A model generated the notes under the pieces. It was not told the DNA's origin. It saw nothing but the letters and a program-made list of their open reading frames with translations, and did no database searches. A DNA stretch of 64,000 nt from a virus (lineage: Duplodnaviria; Caudoviricetes): the IMG/VR virus record IMGVR_UViG_3300031974_004051, positions 1,991 through 65,990 of that record. One strand, 5' to 3'. The first letter of the stretch is position 1; the number at the start of each line of letters is the position of its first letter. The position numbers were made by a program, and so were the translations under genes. Of the stretch, positions 22,025-43,500 are shown one piece after another.

Positions 22025-22216
22025 ATGTTAATAGTAAAAGTAGATAAGGGTGGTGTTGAAAAAGCGATAAAAAAATTACGTTCTAAAGTAAGGAACACCA
22101 AACAAATAAAACAGTTAAGGGAACGACAGGAATTTACTAAACCCTCAGTCAAGAAAAGATTAAAGAAACAAAAGGCTATTTACATTCAAAAACTAAGGGA
22201 TTTAGAAGACAAATAA
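22025..22216 (+). CDS. rpsU: ribosomal protein bS21 (Bacteroidia type)
   Basis: MLIV.V...VEKAIKK...LRERQEFTKPSVKKR...KAIYIQ. Confidence 0.92.
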   Translation: MLIVKVDKGGVEKAIKKLRSKVRNTKQIKQLRERQEFTKPSVKKRLKKQKAIYIQKLRDLEDK

Positions 22217-22244
22217 AAAAAGGTGTCGATTGACACCTTTTTTG
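22215..22244. terminator. bidirectional terminator between rpsU and the convergent gene
   Basis: A-run GGTGTC gatt GACACC T-run. Confidence 0.8.
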
Positions 22245-22976
22245 TTATGATAAACCTTCTAATAAATCTCCTATCCTATATAAATTATATTTGGTTGACT
22301 CCATTTCATGAACCTCTTGTTTGACCTGTTTGGCCTTTTGTTCAAATGAAGGGTCTTCTTTAATTAACTCTTCTAATTTTGTGTCAATTGACTCTCTAAT
22401 TTCTTGGATCTTTTCCTCTACTTCAGATTGTTTCATTGTTGTAATTGACTTGAACTTAGATTTATCTTCTTCAGATAATGTTTTATCAAAACTAACATTA
22501 AAATTATTAACTAATACAGAGTTTAATAAATTCTCATTTACACCTTCTTTTACCTCAAGTGTGTCTTTTGTCTTTGATGTAGTTAAATGTTCCACCAATT
22601 CTTTTTTAGCTACAACTTTAGATGAAATATTACCTAGTTTATCAGGACATGATAAAACATCTAATGACTCATATAATGAGTTTTCATTTGAAGTAATATT
22701 TTCCAAGGATTCGTGTAGTGATTTTAATTCAGTACTAACCTCCTCGTGTTTACCTCTCAAAACTTTAGATAACTCTTCCACATATAATTGTGCGGTTTCC
22801 TTATCATCAAACGTCATTGTTTCGATATCCTCATAAAGTGAATACATTTCTTTTAAAGTTTCACTTTTCATAATTGGTTTGAAAAATTTATTCAAATTAC
22901 CTTTAAATGATTCTTTACCATAAGACTCACTTAAAACTGTTAATATTCTATTTTTAATGTTTCCGAATGTTGCCAT
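22245..22976 (-). CDS. hypothetical head-module protein
   Basis: 243-aa ORF directly downstream of the portal gene. Confidence 0.7.
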   Translation of the reverse strand: MATFGNIKNRILTVLSESYGKESFKGNLNKFFKPIMKSETLKEMYSLYEDIETMTFDDKETAQLYVEELSKVLRGKHEEVSTELKSLHESLENITSNENSLYESLDVLSCPDKLGNISSKVVAKKELVEHLTTSKTKDTLEVKEGVNENLLNSVLVNNFNVSFDKTLSEEDKSKFKSITTMKQSEVEEKIQEIRESIDTKLEELIKEDPSFEQKAKQVKQEVHEMESTKYNLYRIGDLLEGLS

Positions 22977-24844: not shown

Positions 24845-26623
24845 CTACCTATACCCTTTTTTACTGAATAACCATCCGTACTCCTTATATTGATCAATTC
24901 CAACAGTATCTTTATTCAAACCGTGTGATGGTTGACCGTCCATAGACATAGAACCAATAGCGTCAAATGCGGTCCCATGAGAATAAAAAGATTTTTTAGT
25001 TTCATAGGTACGTTCAGATAACAACCAAGAATCTAACATAGCTTTATTAGCACTATCATTTCTTTTTAGTTGTGTGAAACATATATCACCCACATACATT
25101 GCGATCGCCATTGCCATAATTGCATCATCGTGTGCCCCTTTCATGTGGTTAGGTCGACCATTTATATAAACGAAAGTGTTTAATTCATTTAGTAATCTTG
25201 AAGATCTAACTACAAAACCATGTCTTAATTGTTCCTCAAAACTTGCAACAATTTGTGTCCTTTTATTGTTAAAGTTTATACCAGGTATTTTATCCTGAGT
25301 TTTTTTATTGTACTGCCAAATATTGTTTGAGGTTACTCCATCAATATACTGATCTTTATAACCCATTTCCTGTAATTTACGTGATGTTGCAATTCCCATA
25401 CCTCCCGTAATATCTGTTGCAACAAACGCTTTGTATAGTGTTCCCCATTTGTAAACAATAGAGGCTAAATCATCGGGTGGAATTTTACCAACATATTCCG
25501 CGACTTGTTCCCCTTCATCAAAATCAATTACACATATCGAAGACGCATCCGCACTATCACCTCTTGAAACATCAACTCCCATGATATATCTATGACCCTC
25601 AACAGGTTCTTTCCATAACCACATAGTACCCTGCATATATTTTTCAATCGGGTCTTTAATCATGGTCTTTCTTATTCTATCTTGTACACTGTTAGGGATA
25701 ACACCGTCACCAGAACCGAGGAAGTCACACTCCAATTCCTGTGCGATCTTTCTTTTATCATATTTGAATTTCTTTGCCATATTCTCAAACCAATGAGAAT
25801 AGGGTTTGTATCCTTGTTCGAGTAATTCCTCATAACCTTCCCAACCTTGTTCTAATATTATCTCATCATCATTGTATTGTTCTCTATTCAACATATAATG
25901 GATAATATCTTCAACTTTAATCCATTTTAGATCACCAGCATATCTTGGGTCTTTAAACCATCTTAAATCGGTTACTTTAAAATCATTCATTCCTCTTAAT
26001 GCTTGATCATAAACACCGTAGTATATTGGATCATAACCGTTAGGTGTTGAGATAAGAATTACTTTACCACCTGTTGAAAGTGATGCCATACATGCCGCCC
26101 AAAAATCTTCACCCGCTTCAATATATGCCGCCTCATCAAACACAAGAACTGTGGGTGTATAACCACGCAATGCATCCGCAGATGTTGCAACGGCTTTTAC
26201 CTCACAACCATTGTTCATTCGATACCTACTTTCAGAGTTTTTATCCGCTGAGAAACCAACATTAATCCATTCGGGCCACTGATCTAAAAATCCACGAATC
26301 TTATTTGCCATTTCAATTGCGGTATCCCTTTTGTTCGCAATGATTAGTATTCTTTCAGGATTGTCAGGACTTGCAGTCTGAATTTTTTTTGATAACCACG
26401 CCGCAGTTACAGTGGATACCCCCGCCTGTCTATACTTACGAGTGATATTTTCATTATAGTTATCATAATCATTAATCAATTGAATTTGATCAGGGAATAA
26501 CTCTAATGGAACATATTTTTTTTGTGTGTTGTCGTATGTTGTTAGATATGTTTTAAGGGCATACGGAGTATCCTTCATTATCTTGGCGTACTCTTTCAAC
26601 TGTAATAATTTCTGTTTGTCCAT
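24845..26623 (-). CDS. terminase large subunit (gp17-like)
   Basis: KYRQAGVST, VFDEAAYI, ISTPNG, QELECDF, GVDVSRG, HDDAIMA. Confidence 0.96.
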   Translation of the reverse strand: MDKQKLLQLKEYAKIMKDTPYALKTYLTTYDNTQKKYVPLELFPDQIQLINDYDNYNENITRKYRQAGVSTVTAAWLSKKIQTASPDNPERILIIANKRDTAIEMANKIRGFLDQWPEWINVGFSADKNSESRYRMNNGCEVKAVATSADALRGYTPTVLVFDEAAYIEAGEDFWAACMASLSTGGKVILISTPNGYDPIYYGVYDQALRGMNDFKVTDLRWFKDPRYAGDLKWIKVEDIIHYMLNREQYNDDEIILEQGWEGYEELLEQGYKPYSHWFENMAKKFKYDKRKIAQELECDFLGSGDGVIPNSVQDRIRKTMIKDPIEKYMQGTMWLWKEPVEGHRYIMGVDVSRGDSADASSICVIDFDEGEQVAEYVGKIPPDDLASIVYKWGTLYKAFVATDITGGMGIATSRKLQEMGYKDQYIDGVTSNNIWQYNKKTQDKIPGINFNNKRTQIVASFEEQLRHGFVVRSSRLLNELNTFVYINGRPNHMKGAHDDAIMAMAIAMYVGDICFTQLKRNDSANKAMLDSWLLSERTYETKKSFYSHGTAFDAIGSMSMDGQPSHGLNKDTVGIDQYKEYGWLFSKKGYR

Positions 26624-31230: not shown

Positions 31231-31602
31231 TTAACCAATTGAAATGGTTCGTTGTGAGTTCTTCTTTTTTGTTTTTGGAATGGATATTTTTAATATACCA
31301 TTTTGAACCTTTGCCGATATTTTCTTATCGTTCACATCTTCAGGTAAAGTGTAAGTCCTCTCGAATGAATCAATAAAAGTTTTCTCGTTATCGGATTTGG
31401 TGTAGGTGATCTTTAGTAAGTCCTCCTCAACAATAATGTTAATATCATTTTTGGTAAGACCTGGTACAATGAAATCTAAAGTATATTCATTCTCATCTTG
31501 TTTTTTGTACACATTAACATAACCACTCTGTGTCTTATCTGTTCTTGAATCAAAGAACTCATCCACAAACTTTACAAATGGATCATTTCTAAATAAAATC
31601 AT
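31231..31602 (-). CDS. small heat-shock protein Hsp20
   Basis: VPGLTK.DI, FER.YTLPEDV...ISAKVQNGILKISIPK. Confidence 0.93.
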   Translation of the reverse strand: MILFRNDPFVKFVDEFFDSRTDKTQSGYVNVYKKQDENEYTLDFIVPGLTKNDINIIVEEDLLKITYTKSDNEKTFIDSFERTYTLPEDVNDKKISAKVQNGILKISIPKTKKKNSQRTISIG

Positions 31603-31639
31603 AGTTTTTAAATTTTAATTTTTTATTTATTATGTTAAT

Positions 31640-31712
31640 TACAAAATGAGTACCAACGTCTCATTTGAGACATTATGTCACAAATATAACCATTATATGT
31701 GACACATTGTCA
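31640..31712. promoter_or_regulatory. sigma54-like promoter facing hsp20 plus two (T/A)GACA-N3-TGTCA palindromes
   Basis: Minus strand TTGGTACTCATTTTGTA (31656-31640); palindromes at 31668-31680 and 31700-31712. Confidence 0.5.
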
Positions 31713-31715
31713 AAC

Positions 31716-31746
31716 TTGATTTTTGGTATAATTTTGTTTATCTTTA
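31716..31746 (+). promoter_or_regulatory. sigmaA-type promoter of clpC
   Basis: TTG-N20-TATCTTTA. Confidence 0.5.
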
Positions 31747-31763
31747 TGTAAAACAAATAAAGT

Positions 31764-33779
31764 ATGTCTGTAGAATTTTTTGAGGAGGGTACCCAACCCC
31801 AAAGTAAGAGAGGAAAGAAGGGGAGTAAAACTCCTGTTCTTGATAATTTTTCGAGAGATCTCACAACTATCGCGGCTGAAGGTGGTATCGACCCGATTAT
31901 CGGAAGGGATAAAGAAGTACTTCGAATTGCCCAAATTTTATCGAGAAAGAAGAAGAACAATGTCGTTATTGTTGGTGATGCGGGTGTTGGTAAATCGGCG
32001 TTAGTTGAAAAACTCGCCTTGTTAATTAGTGAAGGAAATTGTCCAACTAATTTACTTGATAAAAGAATTATGTCATTGGACTTGACATCCTTAGTTGCGG
32101 GTACCAAATACAGAGGTCAGTTTGAGGAAAGGATTAAAGTTATTTTAAACGAATTACAAGACGCACCGAATGTGATAATTTTCATAGATGAGATTCATAC
32201 TATGGTAGGTGCAGGAAATGCGTCTGGTTCTATGGACGCTGCGAATATATTAAAACCCGCCCTTGCAAGAGGTGAGATACAATGTATTGGGGCAACAACT
32301 TTTGATGAATACAAAAAGAATATTGAGAAAGATGCTGCACTTGTAAGAAGATTCCAAAAGATTATTCTACAAGAACCAACAATATCAGAAACTAAAGACA
32401 TCTTAAAAAATTTAAAAGAATCTTATGAAGATTTTCACAGAGTAGAATACAAAGAAGATGTAATTGAAACTATTGTGAACCTTTCTAAAAAGTATATTAC
32501 AGATAAACAATTTCCCGATAAAGCGATCGATATATTGGATGAGTTAGGTTCTGAGAAAAAGATCAACGTTAAAATTCCTGATATTATTGAAAAACTAAGA
32601 AAGGAATCTGAAAACGTCAAAGTTAGAAAGTTAGAGGTTGTAAAAACTCAAGACTATGAGAAGGCGGCGCAACTTAGAGACGAAGAAAGAAAAATTCTAA
32701 AAAAGTTAGATAACGAAAAAGGTAAGTGGAATCAGGAACAAAAGGAAAATAAAAAACCTGTATATGTTGATGATGTGTATAACATGATAACAAACATGAC
32801 GGGTGTTCCCATAAACAAATTAGATACAAAAGAGACAAAATCTTTACTATCGTTAGAGAAAACCATATCTAAAAACGTGATCGGTCAAGATGAGGCAGTT
32901 TCAATCATCTCTAAATCTATAAGAAGAAATAGAGTTGGTGTTAGAGGTGTAAACAAACCAATTGGATCTTTTATGTTTTTAGGTTCTACGGGGGTTGGTA
33001 AAACACACTTAGCAAAGACTTTGGCTAATACTCTATTTGGTGATCCTGAAAAAATAATTAGGGTGGACATGAGTGAGTTTATGGAGAAACATAATGTATC
33101 CAAACTTATTGGATCCCCACCAGGATATGTTGGGTATGATGAAGGGGGACAACTCACCGAAAAAATAAAAAATAACCCATTCTCAGTAGTGTTATTCGAT
33201 GAAGTTGAGAAGGCACATAAGGACGTGTTTAATATATTACTCCAAATTCTTGATGAGGGTCATCTAACAGATTCCTTTGGTAGAAAAGTAAATTTTACGA
33301 ATACACTGATTATCATGACATCCAATGTCGGAGCGAAAAAAGTTTCAGATTTTGGTGCGGGTGTTGGGTTCACTGATGGAACTAATAGAGATAAAGTAAA
33401 GGATTCTATTATACAGAAGGCATTAAAACAACAGTTCTCACCTGAATTCTTAAATCGAATTGATGATATTATAGTCTTTAATAAATTAGATAAGAAGTCA
33501 CTTAAAAAAATCGTAAGTATAGAATTATCAAAACTAAACGATCGACTAAAAGATAGTGGTTATAAGATTACTTTCGATAATACAATCGTAAATGAAATAT
33601 TAGAGAAGAACTCTGAAGAAGATTATGGTGCAAGACCAATAAAAAGAATAATTCAGAATTTGTGTGAAGATTTTATCAGTGATAGTATTTTAACTGGAGA
33701 TATAAACGAAGAAAGTGACGTTATATTAAAAATAAATGAGGGAAAAATGGAAATTTCCAAAAATATTCCCCTCATTTAA
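31764..33779 (+). CDS. clpC: ClpC-type AAA+ ATPase lacking the N-terminal domain
   Basis: Two AAA modules ([16 protein letters not shown]), UVR-type middle domain ([11 protein letters not shown]), VGF ClpP-docking loop. Confidence 0.9.
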
Positions 33780-33810
33780 TTAAAATCTGAACTTTTTTAA
33801 AAAATATATA

Positions 33811-33923
33811 TATTTATACATCAAAGGTTCTCTTTGCCGATTACCTTTTCGTTTTTTCTCGTTAAATTATTGGTGTTGAAACCAATATAGACCTAAAACC
33901 CCAGCAACCTGTTGGGGTTTTTT
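33811..33923 (+). ncRNA. putative ~100-nt small RNA A (or structured clpC 3'UTR)
   Basis: TATTTATA at 33811, no ORF, internal hairpin, terminator at 33895-33923 whose G-U pair favours the + strand; complementary to RNA B. Confidence 0.55.
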
Positions 33924-33924
33924 A

Positions 33925-34806
33925 TTACAAACTAAGTAACATATCAATAAGTTCCTTTTGTGGGAACATATCAACTTTGTCTTTTCTTGTGTTTGTGTGT
34001 GTCCATAGTCCTTTTATTTTACCATAGTACGCATCCTCATTAAATTCAAATGCCGAAACACCTATTTTTCTAATAGATTCAGGTAAACCTTTACGAACAT
34101 CTATCGAATCCCTCTCAGCGATGTATAATATCCATTTTCTTAACGATTCAATCTGAGAATCAGAATAACGGTGCCAAGTTTTATGACCTCTAAATTCTTG
34201 ATCAAGAGTTACTAATTGACTTTCATGTACTCTAGTACCAGCATATGTTTTACCATCTTTTACCCAACCGAAGTTACATACTTCAATACCAACAGAATGG
34301 GTGTGCATATGTTGTGAACCATTTTTACCTAAATGCCAACCATATCCACCCTCAGGTATACACTGCACCATTTCTCCATCATATTTGTCATCATTTCCCT
34401 TAACTGAAGGACCACCTAAAACAAATTCAGTTGCAACCGCACCTCTACTATCTCTCGCCCATTGATCTATACAATTATATGGATTGTGCCACCCCGCTGT
34501 GTGATGTAAAAAAACATACTCTTTGTCTGTGGGACCTTCTTTGTATTCACCAACAGGTAAGAAATGTCTATTTATGACCAATCCATTCTCCGTAACATAA
34601 GTTTTCTCTGAATTATCTGTTGTGGCTAGACCCATAGTGTCCCATGTAGATGGACCTACTATTCCGTCCACGTCAAGTCCATTCAATTTTTGGAATTCTT
34701 TTACTGCCTCAGCCGTACCAGGTCCAAAAATACCATCAGCACCTATTCCAAGAAATTCTTGAAGTTCTTTAACTTCTTTTCCTCTTGATCCTACTTTTAA
34801 TAACAT
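33925..34806 (-). CDS. endolysin: PG-binding domain plus N-acetylmuramoyl-L-alanine amidase
   Basis: ADGIFGPGT.EAVKEFQK..GL.VDGIVGP.TW; LHHTAG, SVGIEV, THT....K.D. Confidence 0.88.
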   Translation of the reverse strand: MLLKVGSRGKEVKELQEFLGIGADGIFGPGTAEAVKEFQKLNGLDVDGIVGPSTWDTMGLATTDNSEKTYVTENGLVINRHFLPVGEYKEGPTDKEYVFLHHTAGWHNPYNCIDQWARDSRGAVATEFVLGGPSVKGNDDKYDGEMVQCIPEGGYGWHLGKNGSQHMHTHSVGIEVCNFGWVKDGKTYAGTRVHESQLVTLDQEFRGHKTWHRYSDSQIESLRKWILYIAERDSIDVRKGLPESIRKIGVSAFEFNEDAYYGKIKGLWTHTNTRKDKVDMFPQKELIDMLLSL

Positions 34807-34817
34807 AATTTTTTTAT

Positions 34818-35045
34818 TTACTCTTTTTTACCAAAGATTTTTCCTACCTCGGCAATCCCAAATGATCCGAGTGTTATTACTACAAATGAATTATAGATAA
34901 ATTCTTGTATTACTAAGTCTTTACCTACAAATCCTGTAATGATATCTGCCGCTGCGAATACCACCATAATTGCGAACGACGCAAAACCAACTACTGATTT
35001 TTCATTAATGTCGTTCTCATCTTTAAAAATGTCTTTAAATGCCAT
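34818..35045 (-). CDS. putative holin (2 TM)
   Basis: 75 aa, two TM segments, charged C-terminus, immediately upstream of the endolysin. Confidence 0.6.
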   Translation of the reverse strand: MAFKDIFKDENDINEKSVVGFASFAIMVVFAAADIITGFVGKDLVIQEFIYNSFVVITLGSFGIAEVGKIFGKKE

Positions 35046-35157
35046 AATTTCAATTTTTTACTTTTTATAAACCTTTTGTGGTTCTTATATAAATAGTTTG
35101 TTATACGAATGATTACCATTTGATTATTGTAAAATTTTTCTGTATTATTTATATTGC

Positions 35158-35247
35158 ATGGTCAAAAGAATTAAGGAATACTTGATTATTAAAACGATAA
35201 GACTTTGGTTCCCAATTAAAAAAGTGAGGTTATGGAGAATCATTTAA
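35158..35247 (+). CDS. 29-aa cationic amphipathic peptide MVKRIKEYLIIKTIRLWFPIKKVRLWRII
   Basis: TATTTATA at 35146-35153, 4 nt before the ATG; its stop overlaps the next start (TAATG). Not in the ORF track. Confidence 0.55.
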   Translation: MVKRIKEYLIIKTIRLWFPIKKVRLWRII

Positions 35248-35741
35248 TGAGTAATAGGAGAGAAATATTGGTATTTACGTTTGTAATATTGGCGATAATA
35301 CTAAGGTTATTACCTCATCCACCTAACTTCACCCCATTGACCTCACTATCTTTGTTCGGTGGTGTGATGTTCAAGAATAAATGGGTTGGTATGTCATTAC
35401 CAATAGTAGTAATGTTTACATCTGATATAGTTTTAGGTTTTTATAGTATTTCCTTTTGGGTCTATGGATCCTTTATTTTGATAAGTTTCATGGGTACTAT
35501 GTGGAAAAAAATGGATCTAAAAAATATTGTGTTATCAACACTGATCTTTTTTATTATCACGAATTTAGGGGTATGGATAATGGGTTACCCATTAACAGTA
35601 AATGGTTTAATTATGTGTTATACATTGGCACTCCCATTTTTGTTGAACTCATTGTTAGGTGACTTATTTTTTGGATATTTACTTAAATGGACGTTTAAGT
35701 TTTTTGAAAGGAAACTAATGCTCGGTTCGTCTATCGGTTAG
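35247..35741 (+). CDS. DUF6580-like multi-pass membrane protein (S-component-like transporter)
   Basis: RLLPHPPNFTP, SD...GFY, FFIITNLGVW, CYTLALPF, GDLFF. Confidence 0.75.
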   Translation: MSNRREILVFTFVILAIILRLLPHPPNFTPLTSLSLFGGVMFKNKWVGMSLPIVVMFTSDIVLGFYSISFWVYGSFILISFMGTMWKKMDLKNIVLSTLIFFIITNLGVWIMGYPLTVNGLIMCYTLALPFLLNSLLGDLFFGYLLKWTFKFFERKLMLGSSIG

Positions 35742-35791
35742 GACTTCAGGTTTTCATCCTGGCAAGAGGGGTTCGATTCCCCTACCGAGTA
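35720..35791 (+). tRNA. tRNA-Glu(TTC)
   Basis: Cloverleaf with GCTCGGT/ACCGAGT acceptor stem, TTC anticodon, GGTTCGATTCC T arm. Confidence 0.92.
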
Positions 35792-35793
35792 CA

Positions 35794-36219
35794 ACTATTG
35801 TTCTTTGACATAATTAAAATTTAAAATTTAAAAACATGGAAAATTTAGAATTTATTTTAGGTGCGCTCAGTATGATCGGTTTGTTCGGATTAGGATATGC
35901 TGTTATGGGTGTATTTAAGGTCACAAAACGTTCCGATGGTTTCGATGAAGCTATCAATGGAATATTCCACGATTTGGAAGATAAGTACAAGGAACTTCAC
36001 CTTCGAATAGACGGTGAAATAGATAGAGTAGATAAACTACACGATGATAATGTTCGATACACTGATCAATTATCTCAGGAATTGTATCGTTACATCGATA
36101 GTAGGTTTGATAAATTTGAAAATCGATTGAAAAAAATCGATAAAGATGGGTGTGAACCCGTTAAAAAATCTAAACAACTCTTGACTGATTAGTCAAAATA
36201 AACGTTAAAGAACAATAGT
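35794..36219 (+). repeat. 16-bp inverted repeat, containing boxA-like GTTCTTTGACA, that flanks a CDS
   Basis: ACTATTGTTCTTTGAC (35794-35809) pairs with GTTAAAGAACAATAGT (36204-36219), with one G-U pair. Confidence 0.8.
35836..36192 (+). CDS. single-pass membrane coiled-coil protein
   Basis: N-terminal TM segment, then heptad-like D/R-rich helices. Confidence 0.75.
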   Translation: MENLEFILGALSMIGLFGLGYAVMGVFKVTKRSDGFDEAINGIFHDLEDKYKELHLRIDGEIDRVDKLHDDNVRYTDQLSQELYRYIDSRFDKFENRLKKIDKDGCEPVKKSKQLLTD

Positions 36220-36247
36220 AAACCCCACAGAAATGTGGGGTTTTTTT
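36220..36247 (+). terminator. intrinsic terminator
   Basis: CCCCACA gaaa TGTGGGG followed by a T-run. Confidence 0.85.
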
Positions 36248-36267
36248 ATTTATATGGGGTAGGGGGG

Positions 36268-36298
36268 TTGATTTTCAATTATTTGTTTCTTAAATTTA
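36268..36298 (+). promoter_or_regulatory. sigmaA-type promoter for tRNA-Leu/Arg
   Basis: TTG-N20-TAAATTTA, just upstream of the tRNA. Confidence 0.55.
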
Positions 36299-36304
36299 TC
36301 CCAT

Positions 36305-36390
36305 GCCTCGGTGGTGGAATTGGTAGACACGCCGGACTTAAAATCCTGTGGACAGTAATGTCCGTGCCGGTTCGACCCCGGCCCGAGGTA
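36305..36390 (+). tRNA. tRNA-Leu(TAA)
   Basis: GCCTCGG/CCGAGGT stem, TAA anticodon, long variable arm. Confidence 0.93.
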
Positions 36391-36395
36391 CAACC

Positions 36396-36469
36396 GCACC
36401 CGTAGCTCAATTGGATAGAGCATCTGCCTTCTAAGCAGACGGTTATAGGTTCGAGTCCTATCGGGTGTA
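36396..36469 (+). tRNA. tRNA-Arg(TCT)
   Basis: GCACCCG/CGGGTGT stem, TCT anticodon. Confidence 0.93.
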
Positions 36470-36484
36470 CTAAATTTTTTAAAT

Positions 36485-36883
36485 ATGAATTACACAAATA
36501 GATACGGAGATGAATACACTTTTTTACTAAACGAAAATGGTAACATTCAGTGGAGTGGTAATTTTGAACATTCACGCTGTGGGTTTGATAATGTGTATAA
36601 TGATGCATACAATGAATTTAAGAAAGATGGTGGTACACTTTCTATAGAAGAGTTCATTAAGGAAGTTCACCACTACGATGAGGAAACTCATAAACCATCA
36701 AAAATTGCGAAAACCTATGGTAATTATGTCTATTCTGATTGGGATACAATTACTATGGTAGATCCTTCAGGAGGTCCTTATATTAGTAAAGGAATGGATA
36801 TGAAATATTACGGATTTGACGGTAAAATTGTTACCAGTTTTACACCCAATAATGATGGATACGAGATAGTTGTAGAAAAATGA
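36485..36883 (+). CDS. hypothetical protein (VDPSGGPYI motif)
   Basis: 132-aa ORF. Confidence 0.7.
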   Translation: MNYTNRYGDEYTFLLNENGNIQWSGNFEHSRCGFDNVYNDAYNEFKKDGGTLSIEEFIKEVHHYDEETHKPSKIAKTYGNYVYSDWDTITMVDPSGGPYISKGMDMKYYGFDGKIVTSFTPNNDGYEIVVEK

Positions 36884-37110
36884 AAGCAATATTAGAGTTT
36901 AATTTACCTGAAGACAAACAAGAGTTCAACCTTGCAACTAAAGCGTCTGATTGGTGGTATGTCTGTTGGCAAATGGATCAATACCTTCGTAAAAGACTTA
37001 AGTACGATAACGGTATCACTGAAGAACAACGTGAGGTGTATGAAGATACGAGAGGTGAACTTTGGAGAATGATGAATGAGAGTGGTGTAAGTTTAGATGA
37101 TGCAGGATAA
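36880..37110 (+). CDS. hypothetical protein (MKAILEFNLPED type)
   Basis: 76-aa ORF, ATGA overlap with the upstream gene. Confidence 0.7.
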   Translation: MKAILEFNLPEDKQEFNLATKASDWWYVCWQMDQYLRKRLKYDNGITEEQREVYEDTRGELWRMMNESGVSLDDAG

Positions 37111-37117
37111 TAACGTC

Positions 37118-37191
37118 GGACTCTTAGCTCAGTTGGTCAGAGCACCGCACTCATAATGCGATGGTCGGGGGTTCAAGTCCCTCAGGGTCCA
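37118..37191 (+). tRNA. tRNA with CAT anticodon, probably Ile2 (lysidine) rather than Met
   Basis: GGACTCT/AGGGTCC stem, CTCATAA loop; overall pattern resembles bacterial tRNA-Ile2. Confidence 0.85.
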
Positions 37192-37212
37192 CAAAATAAA
37201 ATCCACATATTT

Positions 37213-37353
37213 ATGGAAAGTATGAGTTTAAAAAAGAAAGTTTTGGAAAAAATTGTTAAACTGAAGTTTGAAAAGCAAACACAGGAGATAAAAAAACAAA
37301 TCCAAAAATTACAACAATCATTAAGTGATTTTACAAATGGGTCTAACGAGTAG
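37213..37353 (+). CDS. small basic coiled-coil protein
   Basis: ATG downstream of the tRNA; the ORF-track start inside the tRNA is spurious. Confidence 0.5.
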   Translation: MESMSLKKKVLEKIVKLKFEKQTQEIKKQIQKLQQSLSDFTNGSNE

Positions 37354-37522
37354 TGACTTATTGGAAGAGTTATTTTATGAAGCACATCGATTAGGTGTTG
37401 CGGATGAATTAAGGGATAATGTCTCCAAGAGACACACTAAACCTACCCCCACCGCATACGACATGTTACCACTGTACGAAGAAGAATTTCTACAAATCAA
37501 AAAAAGGCTTGATAATAAATAA
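37337..37522 (+). CDS. hypothetical protein
   Basis: ~61-aa ORF from ATG at 37337. Confidence 0.55.
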   Translation: MGLTSSDLLEELFYEAHRLGVADELRDNVSKRHTKPTPTAYDMLPLYEEEFLQIKKRLDNK

Positions 37523-37630
37523 TAAAAAGTTTATATTTTATATGTAACACCTTTTATTGAGAAATAAATCTCTATAATTGGTAACTTAAGTTCGAAAAGA
37601 GAGGTCGGTTAATTCCGACCTTTCATTTAT
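37509..37630 (+). ncRNA. putative structured leader/attenuator or sRNA
   Basis: TTG-N20-TATATTTT promoter, nested hairpin, then GAGGTCGG/CCGACCTT terminator-like stem before the GT gene. Confidence 0.4.
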
Positions 37631-37640
37631 ATAAATCGTT

Positions 37641-38306
37641 ATGAGTACAATTACTGTCGTTTGTTCAACACGTAAAATTGAGGATGAATATGTTAAACAT
37701 GTGAGGAAATTCTTTTCTCACCCTAAAAACGAATACTTCTTCGTGGAAAATAATGGTGATAGATCTTTGACTGAAGTTTACAATGAGTATTTAGAGAAAT
37801 CGTCTAATGATATCGTTGTTTTTATACATGATGACCTTGAGTTCGAAACTAAAAACCTCACACCCAAAATAATAAAACTGTTTGAACGTAATCCTGAGTA
37901 TGGTATTTTAGGTTTAGCGGGTTCTAATAACCTCTTATCAGGACAGTGGTGGCAAGATAGGGATTCAATGCAAGGTCAAGTAGGTCATATTAATGGTAGT
38001 AAAAGATATATGTCAAAGTACTCAAATTCTTTTGGTGATAAAATTAAAGAAGTAATTGTTATCGATGGGTTATTTATGATGGTCCACAAAAAAAGAATTA
38101 AGAAAACTTTTGATGAACAATTTAAAGGTTTCCATTTTTATGATCTTCCGATTTGTCTACTTAATTATTTAGAGGGAGTGAAAGTAGGTGTTACAACAAG
38201 AATTAAACTTTACCACAAATCCATCGGTGAGGTTGATAAGAAATGGGCGAAGAACAAATTGTTTTTTGAAGCTTTATATGAAAAGCACCTCCCATTAAAG
38301 GTTTGA
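37641..38306 (+). CDS. glycosyltransferase-like protein (GT-A)
   Basis: SL...YN, VFIHDD, G.LGLAG, IDGLF, FDE.F.GFHFYD. Confidence 0.8.
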   Translation: MSTITVVCSTRKIEDEYVKHVRKFFSHPKNEYFFVENNGDRSLTEVYNEYLEKSSNDIVVFIHDDLEFETKNLTPKIIKLFERNPEYGILGLAGSNNLLSGQWWQDRDSMQGQVGHINGSKRYMSKYSNSFGDKIKEVIVIDGLFMMVHKKRIKKTFDEQFKGFHFYDLPICLLNYLEGVKVGVTTRIKLYHKSIGEVDKKWAKNKLFFEALYEKHLPLKV

Positions 38307-38351
38307 CAAAAACCATAATTTTATCTATATTTATTAAGTAAAATAAACATT

Positions 38352-38582
38352 ATGAAAAAAGTTATTGCATTTTTTAAAAGATTATTCGGTATTAAGGATG
38401 AGGTACCTACACCCGTAGTTACTCCAAAACCAAAACCGAAAAGAAAACCAAGACCAAAGAAACCTTCAGGTACGGGAACTCCCCATTATTATAATGATAA
38501 ATGGAATCAAGTTGATAAATCCCCTGTCAGAAGAAAACCAAAAAAAGGTGGGTCTAACGATTCCCTTAAAGAAGTTAAGTAA
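38352..38582 (+). CDS. small Lys/Pro-rich protein
   Basis: 76 aa; sigmaA-like promoter at 38302-38333. Confidence 0.6.
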   Translation: MKKVIAFFKRLFGIKDEVPTPVVTPKPKPKRKPRPKKPSGTGTPHYYNDKWNQVDKSPVRRKPKKGGSNDSLKEVK

Positions 38583-38589
38583 TTAACAT

Positions 38590-38976
38590 GGGGGTGACTT
38601 GGAATTGATTGGCGTAGTCAATTATAGCAGGGCACGTAGTGAGATATTTCCTATCACTTAAATCTATGGAGATAATTTTTAAACGGAAACGTTTATTCAC
38701 AGATGGAATTAATGGGTCTTGTATCTGTTGATTCTAAAGTAGCGGTAGCCTAAGGAAACCTCTACAACGGGTCGGGACATATAACCTAGGAACAGAAGTC
38801 TTACAAAGGTGGAGAAACGACTGAATCGGAAATCGAGTCGTACATCTATTGGTGATGGAGGATGTAAAAATTCAATCACATATTTCGGAATATTGAGAAT
38901 CGATATTGTCCTAAACGTGTAGTCCTTTATGGTTGGGACGAGCAAGACGAGGGTTCGAAACCCTCCACCTCCACCA
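38590..38976 (+). ncRNA. ssrA: tmRNA; predicted tag (A)GNVYSQMELMGLVSVDSKVAVA at 38685-38753
   Basis: GGGGGTG/CACCTCC acceptor stem with G3-U70, GGTTCGAA T arm, encoded ACCA, internal tag ORF, terminator at 38979-39000. Confidence 0.93.
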
Positions 38977-39010
38977 ATAGGGATCTTCGGATCCCTTTTT
39001 TATTATCAAT

Positions 39011-39295
39011 ATGAAATTACCAATAGTAGTAGTATACAGAACAATCTATAGAAAGAAAGAGAAACTACATCTCGAGGTATTTCATGGTGTGTATGTCGAT
39101 GATCTTATAGATACCAATAAACGAAAACCTTTAATCCCTAAAGATGCCGACATATTAGAGATAGGTGTTGGGACCTCATTTGAGGAGAAATATTTGAAAA
39201 AATATAAAATGGAAAAGAGTGTGAAGGGTGAGAATACAAACGATAAAATACTGAAAGAATTAAAAAAGGTTGTAAACGAACAAAGAGGTCGTTGA
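39011..39295 (+). CDS. hypothetical protein
   Basis: 94-aa ORF. Confidence 0.6.
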   Translation: MKLPIVVVYRTIYRKKEKLHLEVFHGVYVDDLIDTNKRKPLIPKDADILEIGVGTSFEEKYLKKYKMEKSVKGENTNDKILKELKKVVNEQRGR

Positions 39296-39388
39296 CCCCT
39301 TTGCCGAGATAAAAATTACACTCTCCTTTCGTTATTTTTCGTTTATCAAACAGTACCGACCAAAGTATTGTTCTCATACATATAAATA
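39275..39388 (-). ncRNA. putative ~100-nt RNA B / short non-stop mRNA
   Basis: Upstream terminator at 39404-39428, TATTTATA box at 39388-39381, ATG 3 nt later, terminator hairpin 39303-39281 whose G-U pair favours the - strand. Confidence 0.55.
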
Positions 39389-39456
39389 CTTTATAAGCAT
39401 AAAATAACCCTCATTTAGAGGGTTAATTTTTGTTATTTTTTCGTAAGTTTTTTTAC

Positions 39457-40110
39457 TTATTTATCTGCGACTTGTTTGTAGGCTTTTGGTATCACGTCAC
39501 ACACAACCTCAGCCATTTTCTCACCAAAATCAGATGCTCTAAAGTATTCAAATACCGCATTTCTGAACAGCGGTCCCGCATAACTATCTTTTTCAATATC
39601 ATACATCATGTACTTAGCAATACCTTCTGTCATTGCATCCATCACGGGTGCACCATATTGTTTACAATTATTACCACCTCTGAACATTGCAATTAAGTAT
39701 CTTAGGTCTAAATCCGCTAAAGAAGATGCAAATGCTTGTGAGAGTCTATTTTTAAAACCTAATAAACTCAAACCATACGTGATTAAATATTCCCTAACTC
39801 GTGAAGTAATACCTGAACTAACCTTAGAAGTAAAATCCCCTACACCAGGGTTTATCCCTTCCTTAGACGATGATTGATCTTGTCCAGGTTTAAGGAATTT
39901 ATTAAGAAACTCTCCAACACCTTCACCAATATGACTATCAATTTCTTCGTCACTTTTACCCTTGTCTTGTAAATCAGCTAATGCGTCCGCAATTTTGTTA
40001 AACTTATCTGTGTCCGACATTTCTTCATTCTCAACAATTAAGTTTAGTTTGGTATCGATCTCATACCTTTCATTTAATGTTGATCTAACTATGTTATTAA
40101 TGTTATCCAT
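39457..40110 (-). CDS. hypothetical protein, possibly head-internal/ejected
   Basis: 217 aa; N-terminal ..STLNE propeptide-like segment. Confidence 0.7.
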   Translation of the reverse strand: MDNINNIVRSTLNERYEIDTKLNLIVENEEMSDTDKFNKIADALADLQDKGKSDEEIDSHIGEGVGEFLNKFLKPGQDQSSSKEGINPGVGDFTSKVSSGITSRVREYLITYGLSLLGFKNRLSQAFASSLADLDLRYLIAMFRGGNNCKQYGAPVMDAMTEGIAKYMMYDIEKDSYAGPLFRNAVFEYFRASDFGEKMAEVVCDVIPKAYKQVADK

Positions 40111-40120
40111 TTTTTCTTTT

Positions 40121-42289
40121 TTAAGTGTTTGCGTTAGAGAAATCTACGAAACTATTATTATCATCAATTTTGTTCATACGAGCCCAATTACGTGCAACTC
40201 GTCTAGCGTCTCTTGAATCTGCTACCCAAACATATTCAGTCTTTCTACCCTTTCTCCTATCATAACTATAGTTAATGTGACTCATATGTTTATTAATTAT
40301 ACTTAATTGGTCTTCAGATAGATCGGCTCTTACATCAATAACGAATCTACCGTTTTTAAACCTCATATATTTTGTCAGAATTTCAGATATCGTTAAACCA
40401 CCTACAGTCATGTTTTTCAAATTTTCAAGAGCTTCTTTTCCATTCTTCTGTAACATCGCTTCCGTATCCAACTTAACTATTGGTTTTTTCTCAATATTTG
40501 TTACTGGCTTAACTGTTTCTCTTTCCTTATCATCTTTAGATGATTTTTTTACAGGAACAACCTCACTATCACCACTCGATTTTTTTCCACAATTATCCAT
40601 CATTGTGTCATATACTTTCTTAGTGATTTTTGCGTCATCCTTATCATTATCAGCAAATATATTTTGATCTAACATTGCCTTTTTAGTTATAGGACCATAA
40701 TAACCATCAACCTTTAAATTTGCGGTTGGGTTAAGACATCTCTGAATATTCTTAATCTTATCACTGATACAACCAACTGACATTGGGAAATCATCACATG
40801 GTTTGTATTTAGTACTACCACCTGATCCTCCTGATTTATTGTCATCCCATATAACTGTTAAGTGTGAAGTATTGGTTCTTCCCGAACCTTCCTTATCAGA
40901 TTGTGTTCCCTCAGTATCTTTAGAAGGTTTACCTATAATTTGTAAAAATTCTTTTTTAGCTTCAATACCCTCAAAATCCAAATTGGTTAAATTCTCTACG
41001 TGGTCAGCCAATTCCTTACGTTTGATTTTTGGGTAATTACTAACAATAACTTTAACCGCATCTACTCCTTTATATGTCTTACCAACAACACTTTTTAAAG
41101 CTCTAAGTGCGTCCTTCATATCAGTACTATCACCATCCAAGAAATCACCACTTAATTGGTCATCCAATTCATCAATAACTCTACTTATTTCTCTCGCACT
41201 TAAATCACTGGTTGACACAGTCTCAGATTGTTCGTTAAGTTCTTTGATTGCGGTTTGGTTACATTCCCATTTACCTGTATCACCATTTTTGGTCGATACT
41301 CTGTAATCACTATAGAATTGTATCCAACCACCTGTCTTCTTACCTGCAAACTCATCCATATCTACTCTGACAAAAACACCTTCATCGTCATTACCTGCAG
41401 TTGCGTTATTCTTACCTTCTAATGCATCTACAATACATTTTTTCCAATCCTTAACTGAATCGGGTACATCGTTTGGATCAATATCATCTAAATCAGGTAG
41501 ATCGTCAATTCCTAATGCCGCCTGTATCATATCATAAAAGACATATCCTACAAAACCTAATGCCAATAAAGATGTAATACCGATCCCTTTAGCACCTAAT
41601 TTAGTAAATTTCCAAATTCGAGATGTTGTTTTTACAGTCTCAGGAGTAACTTTAATTTTTGGGGAATTCTTACCCCCCTTAAATATTCTTCCAAAAGTCT
41701 TATCCCATACTTTCCTACCCCCCGCAGCAATGGCTGAAACACCCTTTTCACTTGCGGTTGCCGCTGTTTTCGCGTCTTGACCAACTGATTTAACACCCCC
41801 CTCAACACCTTGAGCCGCGGCCTTAGATGACCGAGCAGATATTTGAGCATCTTTAAATGCGAGTTTCGCATCTTTTGAGGTTGCATCTACAATTTCTTTT
41901 ACTTTGGTTTTAGTAAGTGCCTTCTCCCCCGCTTTAGTTGCGTTGTGTAATCTTATAATCGCAAGTTCTTTCGACGCGAGTTTAAGACTTTCAGGTAGTT
42001 GATTACCGAGTGCCTCCAATGTTGCAAGATCTGCATTTTTTACAAAATTCTTTGATTTTGTTTTGAGACTGTTAAGTGCCTGTTGTTCAGTTCTCTTAAG
42101 TGCCCCTAAAACAATTTTTGTACCCGCTTCACCTTCGAGTTTAAATACCATTTTAAGTTTATCTATATACTTAGAATGTTTTAACCCTTTTGCAATTGTA
42201 ACTGGTTGCTCATTGGTTTGTATTTCATCTTCAAATAGAAGATTTATCATCGATAAATTATTACTCATTCCTTTTCTTTTAATTTTCAA
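40121..42289 (-). CDS. large protein with TM segment and peptidoglycan-binding domain
   Basis: GIGITSLLALGFVGYVFY TM; IQRCL...LKVDGYYGPIT PG-binding motif. Confidence 0.7.
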   Translation of the reverse strand: MKIKRKGMSNNLSMINLLFEDEIQTNEQPVTIAKGLKHSKYIDKLKMVFKLEGEAGTKIVLGALKRTEQQALNSLKTKSKNFVKNADLATLEALGNQLPESLKLASKELAIIRLHNATKAGEKALTKTKVKEIVDATSKDAKLAFKDAQISARSSKAAAQGVEGGVKSVGQDAKTAATASEKGVSAIAAGGRKVWDKTFGRIFKGGKNSPKIKVTPETVKTTSRIWKFTKLGAKGIGITSLLALGFVGYVFYDMIQAALGIDDLPDLDDIDPNDVPDSVKDWKKCIVDALEGKNNATAGNDDEGVFVRVDMDEFAGKKTGGWIQFYSDYRVSTKNGDTGKWECNQTAIKELNEQSETVSTSDLSAREISRVIDELDDQLSGDFLDGDSTDMKDALRALKSVVGKTYKGVDAVKVIVSNYPKIKRKELADHVENLTNLDFEGIEAKKEFLQIIGKPSKDTEGTQSDKEGSGRTNTSHLTVIWDDNKSGGSGGSTKYKPCDDFPMSVGCISDKIKNIQRCLNPTANLKVDGYYGPITKKAMLDQNIFADNDKDDAKITKKVYDTMMDNCGKKSSGDSEVVPVKKSSKDDKERETVKPVTNIEKKPIVKLDTEAMLQKNGKEALENLKNMTVGGLTISEILTKYMRFKNGRFVIDVRADLSEDQLSIINKHMSHINYSYDRRKGRKTEYVWVADSRDARRVARNWARMNKIDDNNSFVDFSNANT

Positions 42290-42294
42290 ATTAT

Positions 42295-43500
42295 TTAAAG
42301 TTCATCAAATGGATCTTTATCACCATAAAGTTCGTCATAGACCTGCATAGTTTTTTCAAAATTTTCAGCATCTTCTGCAGATATACCTGTGTATGCTTCA
42401 ATACCCTTTTCAATACCGTAAACAAGTGCCCCCGAGGTAGTACCGGCCTTGACACCTCTTACTAATTTTTGTTTTGCTGTTAATCCTGTAGTATCAGGGA
42501 ACATTTTTATGACGAAGTCTTTTATTTTTTTGACTGCCTTACTTAAAAAACCAGTAATTTTATTGATAAACTTATCTAATGCACTCCATTTACCTTTTAG
42601 TTTACCAAGAACCGATTTAATTTTAGATGTTATCCATTGGGTTCCACCTTTTATTTTTTTGATTATATTCATAAACGCCTTATTACCACTCATTACTTTT
42701 TTAACTTGTGATATCGACCTAACTCCCTTAAACAATCCTCTTGCACCTTTAGCGGCTAACCCCGCACCAAGTAAACCAATAAGATCACAGACAAGGTCTA
42801 ATATTTTCATCCACATTGGAGTCCCTTCAGGATCCCAATCACCACTTATTAATTGGTAGACATCTAATCCAGTTACTAATCCCCAGAATACCATTTGTGG
42901 GACTTTTCCAATACCCGTTGCAATTAAAATTGCATCAACTATAATACCTATGGTGGAGTAAGCAGCGGCCTTAAACTTCCTTAAAATCCAAAGTAATCCA
43001 CGTCCAAGAGCATTCCAAACATCTTTCCATTGTAAGTTAGATAGTTTTGCCCCAAATTCAGCTAACTTCTTTTTCGCTTCAGAGTAAAAATCAGAAATAC
43101 CTTTTCCCGCAGCTTTGACTTTTTTACCTAACCATGAATTACTGATCCATTCACCAAAACCTTCTTCTAAAAAGAAATCTCTTAACTCATATAAATTTTG
43201 ATCGGTACTTTCTACTAAGGGTGATGATAAAACACTTTCTCTGATCTCACCAAACTCTTCAGTATCATTCTCCACATTTGAAAAGATCGTCTTAAATACA
43301 CTCATAGACTCCCATAGATACCCCAAATTCGTCTTTTCTTGAATATCTATGACATGATCATTTAAAATAAAATATCTTTCGTCACAAGTGATGAATGCTT
43401 CAAATACAACACCTGGTTCTTTTGGACTACTGACATGACCACTATAATTAAGTATTTGATTATGTCTTTCTAATAATATACCTTGTCTTTGTACTACCAT
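42295..43500 (-). CDS. hydrophobic helical protein, possibly ejection/membrane-inserting
   Basis: Gly/Ala-rich hydrophobic hairpins followed by basic helices. Confidence 0.7.
   Translation of the reverse strand: MVVQRQGILLERHNQILNYSGHVSSPKEPGVVFEAFITCDERYFILNDHVIDIQEKTNLGYLWESMSVFKTIFSNVENDTEEFGEIRESVLSSPLVESTDQNLYELRDFFLEEGFGEWISNSWLGKKVKAAGKGISDFYSEAKKKLAEFGAKLSNLQWKDVWNALGRGLLWILRKFKAAAYSTIGIIVDAILIATGIGKVPQMVFWGLVTGLDVYQLISGDWDPEGTPMWMKILDLVCDLIGLLGAGLAAKGARGLFKGVRSISQVKKVMSGNKAFMNIIKKIKGGTQWITSKIKSVLGKLKGKWSALDKFINKITGFLSKAVKKIKDFVIKMFPDTTGLTAKQKLVRGVKAGTTSGALVYGIEKGIEAYTGISAEDAENFEKTMQVYDELYGDKDPFDEL

Follow-up and report, generated by a model that had tools for sequence, protein, structure and literature searches.

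Two short segments of a 64-kb stretch of DNA from an uncultured marine giant phage (the window, which is taken from a 65,990-base IMG/VR virus record with a CheckV completeness of 21%) are predicted to encode a pair of phage small non-coding RNAs, A and B, each of approximately 100 nucleotides (nt) and each with its own phage-type promoter (TATTTATA) and intrinsic terminator. Comparison with related phages indicates two new phage small-RNA families that are real, widespread and paired, with co-evolving complementarity; as their matching sequences change together across these phages, A and B most likely bind each other. Pairing in trans as a selected function would be the best explanation of the data, and we hold it with moderate confidence. 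The two units appear to be diverged copies of one DNA segment, and their RNAs would be complementary because the copies are read from opposite strands. Most of the small RNAs known from phages act on RNAs of the host or on messenger RNAs (mRNAs) of the phage itself; if the reading presented here is true, a pair in which both partners are small terminated RNAs of one phage would form an unusual regulatory unit.

Two small RNA units and their complementarity

Unit A spans 33811-33927 on the plus strand with a hairpin and U-tail at 33895-33923, and unit B spans 39388-39272 on the minus strand with a hairpin at 39303-39281 followed by UUUGUUCGUUU. Re-reading of the sequence returned the coordinates, boxes and orientation-specific terminators that a preliminary description of this DNA had assigned to them. 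The predicted features are listed below, where helices 1 to 3 are the blocks through which the two RNAs would pair.

33806-33818 (core 33811-33818), plus strand: promoter box of unit A, ATATATATTTATA, with the core TATTTATA; TATATTTAT is invariant in 26/26 aligned A units
33825-33846, plus strand: A hairpin 1, stem AGGU/ACCU plus UC/GA, with UUUGCC in the loop; 97% of stem cells paired
33831-33840, plus strand: A seed UCUUUGCCGA, the A side of helix 1; the same in 18/24 paired genomes, with one to a few changes in the others
33845-33863, plus strand: A single-stranded tract CUUUUCGUU-UUUUCUCGUU, the A side of helices 2 and 3; unpaired in the consensus fold, paired with B by RNAduplex; variable between lineages, yet matching the cognate B
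33870-33886, plus strand: A hairpin 2 with the conserved loop GUUGAA; 5/5 pairs changed on both sides, 98.5% of cells paired
33890-33893, plus strand: single-stranded GACC, invariant in 26/26 A units and complementary to GGUC of the B 5' hairpin loop
33895-33927, plus strand: intrinsic terminator and U-tail of A, abutting the stop codon of the opposite-strand endolysin gene; its stem covaries
39381-39388, minus strand: promoter box of unit B, TATTTATA; TATTTAT is invariant in 24/24 aligned B units
39351-39370, minus strand: B 5' hairpin with the invariant loop UUUGGUC; 6/7 pairs changed on both sides, closing pair U-G in 19/24
39325-39344, minus strand: B single-stranded purine tract AAACGAAAAAU-AACGAAAGG, the B side of helices 3 and 2; unpaired in the consensus fold, paired with A by RNAduplex; it leads into a Shine-Dalgarno-like GGAG and co-varies with the cognate A
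39306-39324, minus strand: B central hairpin GAGAG...UCUC, putative third arm of an A:B three-way junction
39298-39307, minus strand: UCGGCAAAGG, the B side of helix 1, made up of an unpaired toehold of 4 nt and the base of the terminator 5' arm; tract AUCUCGGCAAAG
39272-39303, minus strand: intrinsic terminator of B with the tail UUUGUUCGUUU; 12/12 stem pairs 100% paired, G-U pairs in 23/24 and 22/24; the tail overlaps the end of a 94-amino-acid gene

After its box, unit A carries in order the 5' hairpin, the single-stranded tract, which is U-rich, hairpin 2, GACC and the terminator, and unit B carries the 5' hairpin, GAUAA, the single-stranded purine tract ending in AAACGAAAGGAGG, and AUCUCGGCAAAG leading into the terminator. 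Both folds are borne out by the relatives. Among 26 A sequences compensatory changes occur in 14/21 pairs and 97.4% of cells are paired; pair 25/41 of hairpin 1, for example, is U-A in 15 sequences and A-U in 8. None of 500 shuffles scored as high in covariation as the A fold, and versions with slid partners are only 28-55% paired. The fold of 24 B sequences has compensatory changes in 10/19 pairs, with 98.7% of cells paired. The transcribed strand of each unit is fixed because G-U pairs are frequent, as at two positions of the A terminator (9/26 and 7/26) where the other strand would have C-A. The orientation that had been claimed from a G-U pair in each unit is therefore upheld in the relatives by covariation, G-U pairs and an invariant box: TATTTAT, a predicted promoter element, is unchanged in 26/26 A units as it is in all B units. 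In the window TATTTATA occurs 22 times against 11.7 +/- 3.5 expected (0/100 shuffles reach 22), and TATTTAT lies on the same strand within 45 nt upstream of 13 of the 63 open reading frames (ORFs). Taken as sequence evidence, these data support A and B as conserved, independently structured small-RNA genes in the predicted orientations. A side observation concerns B at 39325-39317 of the minus strand: throughout the family it keeps a near-perfect Shine-Dalgarno-like AAGGAGG(U), a signal that genes of this phage rarely use.

RNAduplex pairs A 33829-33863 with B 39343-39296 at -31.4 kcal/mol and reproduces the helices of the preliminary description, namely 11 bp (12 with the end pair), 4 bp (UUAC/GUAA), 9 bp and 3+5 bp, with unpaired B stretches of 8 nt and 5 nt around GUAA. 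On the DNA the complementary segments are direct repeats with opposite-strand transcription. Helix 1 had been described as a 12-bp helix over the 5' arm of the B terminator, and its core does cover the toehold UCGG and the base CAAAGG of that arm; the A seed has CUCUUUG in common with the 3' arm of the same terminator. The three-way junction proposed around the B central hairpin fared less evenly, the hairpin being predicted in the fold of close relatives and lost from the 24-sequence consensus. GACC of A may also contact the GGUC loop of B, a weak match of 4 nt; by hand reading both 4-mers are invariant but their flanking positions are without covariation, and this contact was set aside. A fourth helix, between A hairpin 2 and the B 5' hairpin, was likewise rejected as not conserved: RNAduplex gives it in the related genomes g06, g07, g08, G002, G005 and G003, and it is absent in the window and 3 bp long in G006.

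From this genome alone the match is modestly beyond chance. The full cores pair at -40.0 kcal, compared with -26.0 +/- 4.3 for dinucleotide shuffles, of which 4/1000 are as low. When A was scanned against 8526 sequence windows on both strands, B was the best non-self partner at -32.6, followed by sites at -31.7 and -30.8, and the reverse scan from B placed A first (-32.5 vs -30.8). Self-matches aside, each is the top duplex partner of the other in the window and in G002, and B is second for A in G003. What lifts the match above chance is the comparative data from relatives. The endolysin gene beside A has 191 IMG/VR relatives, of which only the closest 5 loci have A, and 3 of these also B, and the set of relatives was widened by pattern scans and covariance models. 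With nhmmer we found 42 distinct A and 40 distinct B sequences in IMG/VR phage contigs, counts that leave out one A match (20.5 bits) and two B matches (18-19 bits). Uncultured phage contigs, most of them large, carry the family widely, with about 40 distinct versions per RNA. A and B could be paired within one record in 33 cases, which give 25 distinct pairs. A first A pattern returned at least 120 stretches, mostly unrelated, and was discarded as too loose.

Helix 1 (A UCUUUGCCGA with B UCGGCAAAGG) has 10/10 bp in 19 of 24 distinct genome pairs, 9/10 in 4 and 8/10 in 1, and its variable positions are mostly wobble-compatible, with A/G switches in B opposite U and C-to-U changes in A opposite G. 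On the B side, C97 and A98 of AUCUCGGCAAAG never change and neighbouring positions vary in 1-5/24; in the stem of the B terminator the base, on the side facing A, hardly changes, whereas the inner part covaries freely, and the A terminator drifts freely. Neither consensus fold pairs the tracts of helices 2 and 3, and there cognate partners pair at a mean of -16.0 kcal compared with -12.4 for non-cognate ones; with phylogeny ignored, 0/20,000 permutations are as good for the 25 distinct pairs. When each of 17 linker types is represented once, 0/50,000 permutations match the data, with cognate partners at a mean of -15.5 kcal and non-cognate ones at -12.4, and a clade whose 10 linkers have all diverged from one another gives p = 1.4e-4. 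Individual genomes illustrate lineage-specific linkers that match, as in G027 (A CGUUUAAAAUU vs B AAUUUUAAACG) and G037 (A CCAG vs B CUGG), and the length of the helix 2 U-run and A-run (3 or 4) agrees in 22/25 pairs by hand count. Intermolecular covariation, which the preliminary description had named as a check, is found to this extent: cognate pairs exceed non-cognate ones in permutation tests that ignore phylogeny, and complementarity is conserved in 24/24 pairs.

Weighing of the alternatives

Several observations weigh against pairing as the selected function. When the folds of each RNA alone are counted, the net cofolding gain of A with B is -8.8 kcal, no outlier against a background of -5.6 +/- 4.2 over 1420 windows; set against background, as had been proposed, the pairing energy stands out modestly among shuffles, leads the scanned windows by only 0.9 kcal, and in net gain does not stand out. 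The margins in duplex rank are small (1-3 kcal), and in G003 another site is slightly better. Some changes in helix 1 are disruptive and uncompensated: GG to AA in B of L364, which makes two C-A mismatches, C to A in B of L322, and loss of the end pair in G027 and G042. In g08 both sides of helix 2 are changed for the worse. The A seed is unchanged where its B partner site is mutated, and A may therefore have another target. A hand count of G-U against C-A mismatches gave no clear G-U excess. A 5-lineage 'AGU' clade with one common core has no cognate preference (p = 0.68), and the permutation tests as a whole ignore phylogeny. Short matches are also cheap, as a non-cognate example makes clear: a 5-bp 'perfect' helix 3 seen by eye between the L192-type A (AUCAU) and the L206-type B (AUGAU) was rejected, the true partner in G044 having a different B. 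In two records, G001 (181 kb) and G017 (97 kb), B occurs but no A was detected; neither record is complete. Finally, in four RNA-labelled runs, available as assembled contigs only, exact-match contigs lie over 35761-36012, 37349-37499 and the transfer-messenger RNA (tmRNA) gene, and none over A or B.

A first alternative is that A and B are two independent small RNAs, or an element at the 3' side of the clpC gene and one beside the tmRNA gene, which descend as antisense copies from one ancestor and act on targets of their own, such as mRNAs of host or phage or an RNA-binding protein common to both, their complementarity being a by-product of descent and parallel constraint. The seed of A that stays fixed in L364 and L322 fits this account, as do the many purine-rich coding stretches with which the CU-rich A pairs about equally, and the fixed synteny partner of each unit, clpC for A and the tmRNA gene for B. 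Homology is also suggested by the A covariance model, which weakly matches the antisense strand of B loci at 14-17 bits, a result that fits an old duplication. What independent RNAs do not predict is a match of variable linkers within one genome only, or the agreement in helix 2 run length. The only other exact complement of the seed in the window, in an hsp20 gene (31309-31317), has no nucleotide-level conservation in 4 relatives and was dismissed as a coincidence. On balance we consider independent RNAs rather unlikely.

Alternatively the blocks could act as DNA, that is, as protein-binding, insulator or recombination sites that bracket the island of transfer RNA (tRNA) and tmRNA genes and are kept alike by gene conversion. 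They are indeed direct repeats on one DNA strand, they always flank a variable region of 3-17 kb with tRNA genes, and the two copies in G027 are identical over 15 nt. Against this, the common blocks measure only 5-12 nt, with a spacing of 2-5 nt in A and 12-17 nt in B. The similarity between A and the reverse complement of B ends at the helix borders and B has an insert of 12-17 nt between helices 1 and 2, which argues against simple gene-conversion tracts. The surrounding hairpins covary, with many G-U pairs that are meaningful only in RNA read from the strand given here. The two units have separate boxes and U-tailed terminators that point in opposite directions, and lineage-specific linkers would need a protein that co-evolves with them. 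A DNA-level element is in our view improbable.

Chance complementarity of two unrelated AU-rich intergenic transcripts was already disfavoured and is very improbable: the shuffles that reach the observed energy, the near-equal matches elsewhere in the window and the unexceptional net cofolding gain would allow it, but they leave unexplained a helix 1 kept at 8-10 of 10 bp in 24/24 distinct pairs, the co-variation of helices 2 and 3, and reciprocal best partners in two diverged genomes. Least credible of all is a type I toxin-antitoxin of the par type with A as the antitoxin RNA and B as a toxin mRNA with a sequestered Shine-Dalgarno sequence: B does have the near-perfect AAGGAGGU in a phage whose genes nearly lack such sites (3/63), but there is no AUG, GUG or UUG at a usable distance from it, the sole B frame starts at AUC and has 7-20 codons, terminator-loop indels of 1-3 nt shift that frame between relatives, AUCUCGGCAAAG is fixed at every codon position, unlike coding sequence, and the units lie 3-17 kb apart with no common terminator (33895-33923 vs 39303-39281). 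The type I antitoxin-like control suggested in the preliminary description is accordingly dropped, because no ORF is conserved in either RNA.

Genomic setting

The window has a G+C content of about 33% and contains capsid, portal and terminase genes, an endolysin gene, a gene for a ClpC/ClpB-like ATPase, 4 tRNA genes and 1 tmRNA gene. Two of these genes adjoin the RNA units.

31764-33779, plus strand: ClpC/ClpB-like AAA+ ATPase gene (Pfam AAA_2 at 2.6e-70; PHROG 4871), with unit A directly 3' on the same strand
38590-38976, plus strand: phage tmRNA gene (Rfam RF00023 at 72.7 bits, and ARAGORN), on whose 3' end unit B converges

An hsp20-like gene, the ClpC/ClpB-like ATPase gene and the tmRNA gene, which has a short tag (VDSKVAVA), are clustered in the window (31231-33779 and 38590-38976), and this group is a phage proteostasis and ribosome-rescue cluster bracketed by RNAs A and B. 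The placement near clpC and the tmRNA gene noted earlier is one that relatives share. In the window, G002 and G003, clpC stands immediately upstream of A with the same orientation. Most loci have B running towards the 3' end of the tmRNA gene, across gaps of 42-500 nt and in a few cases 1.5 kb. A and B are convergent in every genome in which strands were compared (window, g06-g08, G002-G007, L322, L344 and L364), and the interval of 3-17 kb between them contains tRNA genes. ARAGORN found no tmRNA gene near B in roughly a dozen loci, among them L008 6686-8900, L344, L385, L393 and L401, some of which have tRNA genes nearby; either the tmRNA gene is lost or diverged in loci such as L344, or the link of B to tmRNA is non-obligatory. 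The same program reports a tRNA with the anticodon CUA (labelled Pyl) at L251 8390-8464 (record G003) and L437 7266-7340, which may be an amber-suppressor tRNA and hints that TAG is recoded in relatives.

As to joint occurrence, A is present in 28/43 B-bearing records searched and, by our own count, in 11/12 of those of at least 100 kb; in the other direction B was sought in 3 A-bearing records and by a B pattern scan of the whole collection. The possibility that G001 and G010 are parts of one phage was rejected, the two having no DNA in common, and a second TCTTTGCCGA in G010 was set aside as resembling coding sequence. Weak matches of the B model at 20-38 bits (L026, L028, L030, L045, L048 and L055) were dropped; L028, the one inspected, overlaps the 3' end of a coding region and is without box, and L030 and L026 align alike. 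Further weak B-model matches (19-23 bits) lie at 22209-22320 on the minus strand of the window and at L006 13601-13694, L008 18091-18196 and L009 8548-8653. The unit at 22209-22320 consists of a hairpin and terminator, is kept in close relatives and occupies an intergenic gap before portal-side genes; it may be another small RNA gene.

Between the tmRNA gene and B, at 39011-39295 on the plus strand, lies the 94-amino-acid ORF, which is a real conserved gene, with full-length matches of 70-78% amino-acid identity in L007 and L216. In the clade of the window its last codons are the antisense of the 3' arm and tail of the B terminator, and the gene is absent in lineages in which B is 42-85 nt from the tmRNA gene. 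A 217-amino-acid gene upstream of unit B has no relatives among viral contigs. At the other end, a long hairpin spans the clpC stop codon (33725-33786) and is followed on the minus strand by AUUUUUAAU, and it could therefore terminate transcripts of the endolysin gene that run on across unit A in antisense. The TATTTATA box elsewhere in the window often stands 3-6 nt before an ATG (e.g., 14430, 24845-26623 and 42295-43500); such spacing would imply leaderless or near-leaderless mRNAs, provided that the box acts as a -10-like promoter element.

The phage is remote from cultured ones in the searches made. Megablast of 33000-40500 against GenBank phages gave a tRNA-Arg as sole match, and the endolysin protein search found no close cultured phage, the best identity being 34%. 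A host of Bacteroidota type is hinted at by sequence, because a Shine-Dalgarno-like 4-mer at -20 to -4 precedes only 3/63 ORFs of the window and the endolysin has weak matches to Tenacibaculum phages.

Possible mechanism and known systems

We infer that A and B pair in the cell and that this has an effect there. Pairing would start at the tracts of helices 2 and 3, single-stranded in both RNAs (A CCUUUUCGUU... with B ...AACGAAAGG), and would extend to helix 1, in which the UCUUUGCCGA presented in a loop of A would meet UCGGCAAAGG of B, its toehold and the base of the terminator 5' arm. Mutual titration or destruction of the two RNAs is one conceivable outcome, which we propose tentatively. As another possible outcome, put forward with a little more reserve, A on nascent B would block the B terminator, and B would read through, antisense, into the small gene and the tmRNA/tRNA island. 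Such antitermination of B by A in trans is plausible because A would reach the 5' arm of the B terminator. On nascent B the docking tracts come first and the terminator 5' arm follows; downstream of B lie only the antisense strands of the 94-amino-acid gene and the tmRNA gene, with no further minus-strand terminator-like site before them. It is also possible that A and B form a two-piece structured RNA. No known family matches it: Rfam has nothing over A or B at the gathering threshold, its best sub-threshold match on A reaches 22.7 bits against a threshold of 100 and on B there is none at E up to 10, and blastn of A and of B against GenBank phages gave no match.

The position of the pair at the two ends of the tRNA/tmRNA island, beside clpC and the tmRNA gene, points, if the pairing is true, to RNA-level control of a phage translation-rescue and proteostasis module. 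In its most elaborate form, which we regard as unlikely, A would be an antiterminator made just behind clpC that docks on nascent B, takes hold of the terminator 5' arm ahead of 3' arm synthesis and so forms part of a timed RNA-only switch that couples a ClpC-type unfoldase to trans-translation and tRNA supply. A and B are clean, short sequences suited to in vitro termination and pairing assays.

Among known systems, the c4 RNA of P1 and P7 and the CI RNA of P4 are short phage antisense RNAs that pair through at least two short separate blocks with a transcript from elsewhere in the same genome and affect transcription termination, causing premature termination or blocking mRNA translation. 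In the present pair, by contrast, the target is another small RNA with a terminator of its own, and one would expect pairing to work against termination. CopA/CopT and ColE1 RNA I/RNA II are cis-antisense kissing pairs in which a seed is presented in a loop, pairing spreads into the stems, and complementarity is full since both RNAs come from the same locus; A and B, unlike them, are separate loci with block-wise complementarity only, and the CopA model on unit A gives 17.7 bits against a threshold of 60, no match.

In the par system of pAD1, as set out in the account cited here, RNA I and RNA II are transcribed convergently across DNA direct repeats, which produces complementarity at several separate blocks, and one of the RNAs has its Shine-Dalgarno sequence held in an intramolecular stem (PMC7472228). 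A and B resemble par in being convergent across direct repeats; unlike par, they are without a conserved toxin ORF, lie 3-17 kb apart rather than overlapping, are without a common bidirectional terminator, and belong to a lytic-type giant phage. A second likeness is to the anti-sRNAs (RNAs directed against small RNAs, sRNAs) AgvB and AsxR of enterohaemorrhagic Escherichia coli prophages and to sRNA sponges, in which, in the account available, a small RNA mimics the target of a second one, occupies its seed and thereby blocks it (PMC4104026). The A seed similarly has its CUCUUUG in common with the 3' arm of B's own terminator. AgvB and AsxR act on an Hfq-dependent sRNA of the host core genome whose mRNA targets are known, whereas A and B are both phage genes.

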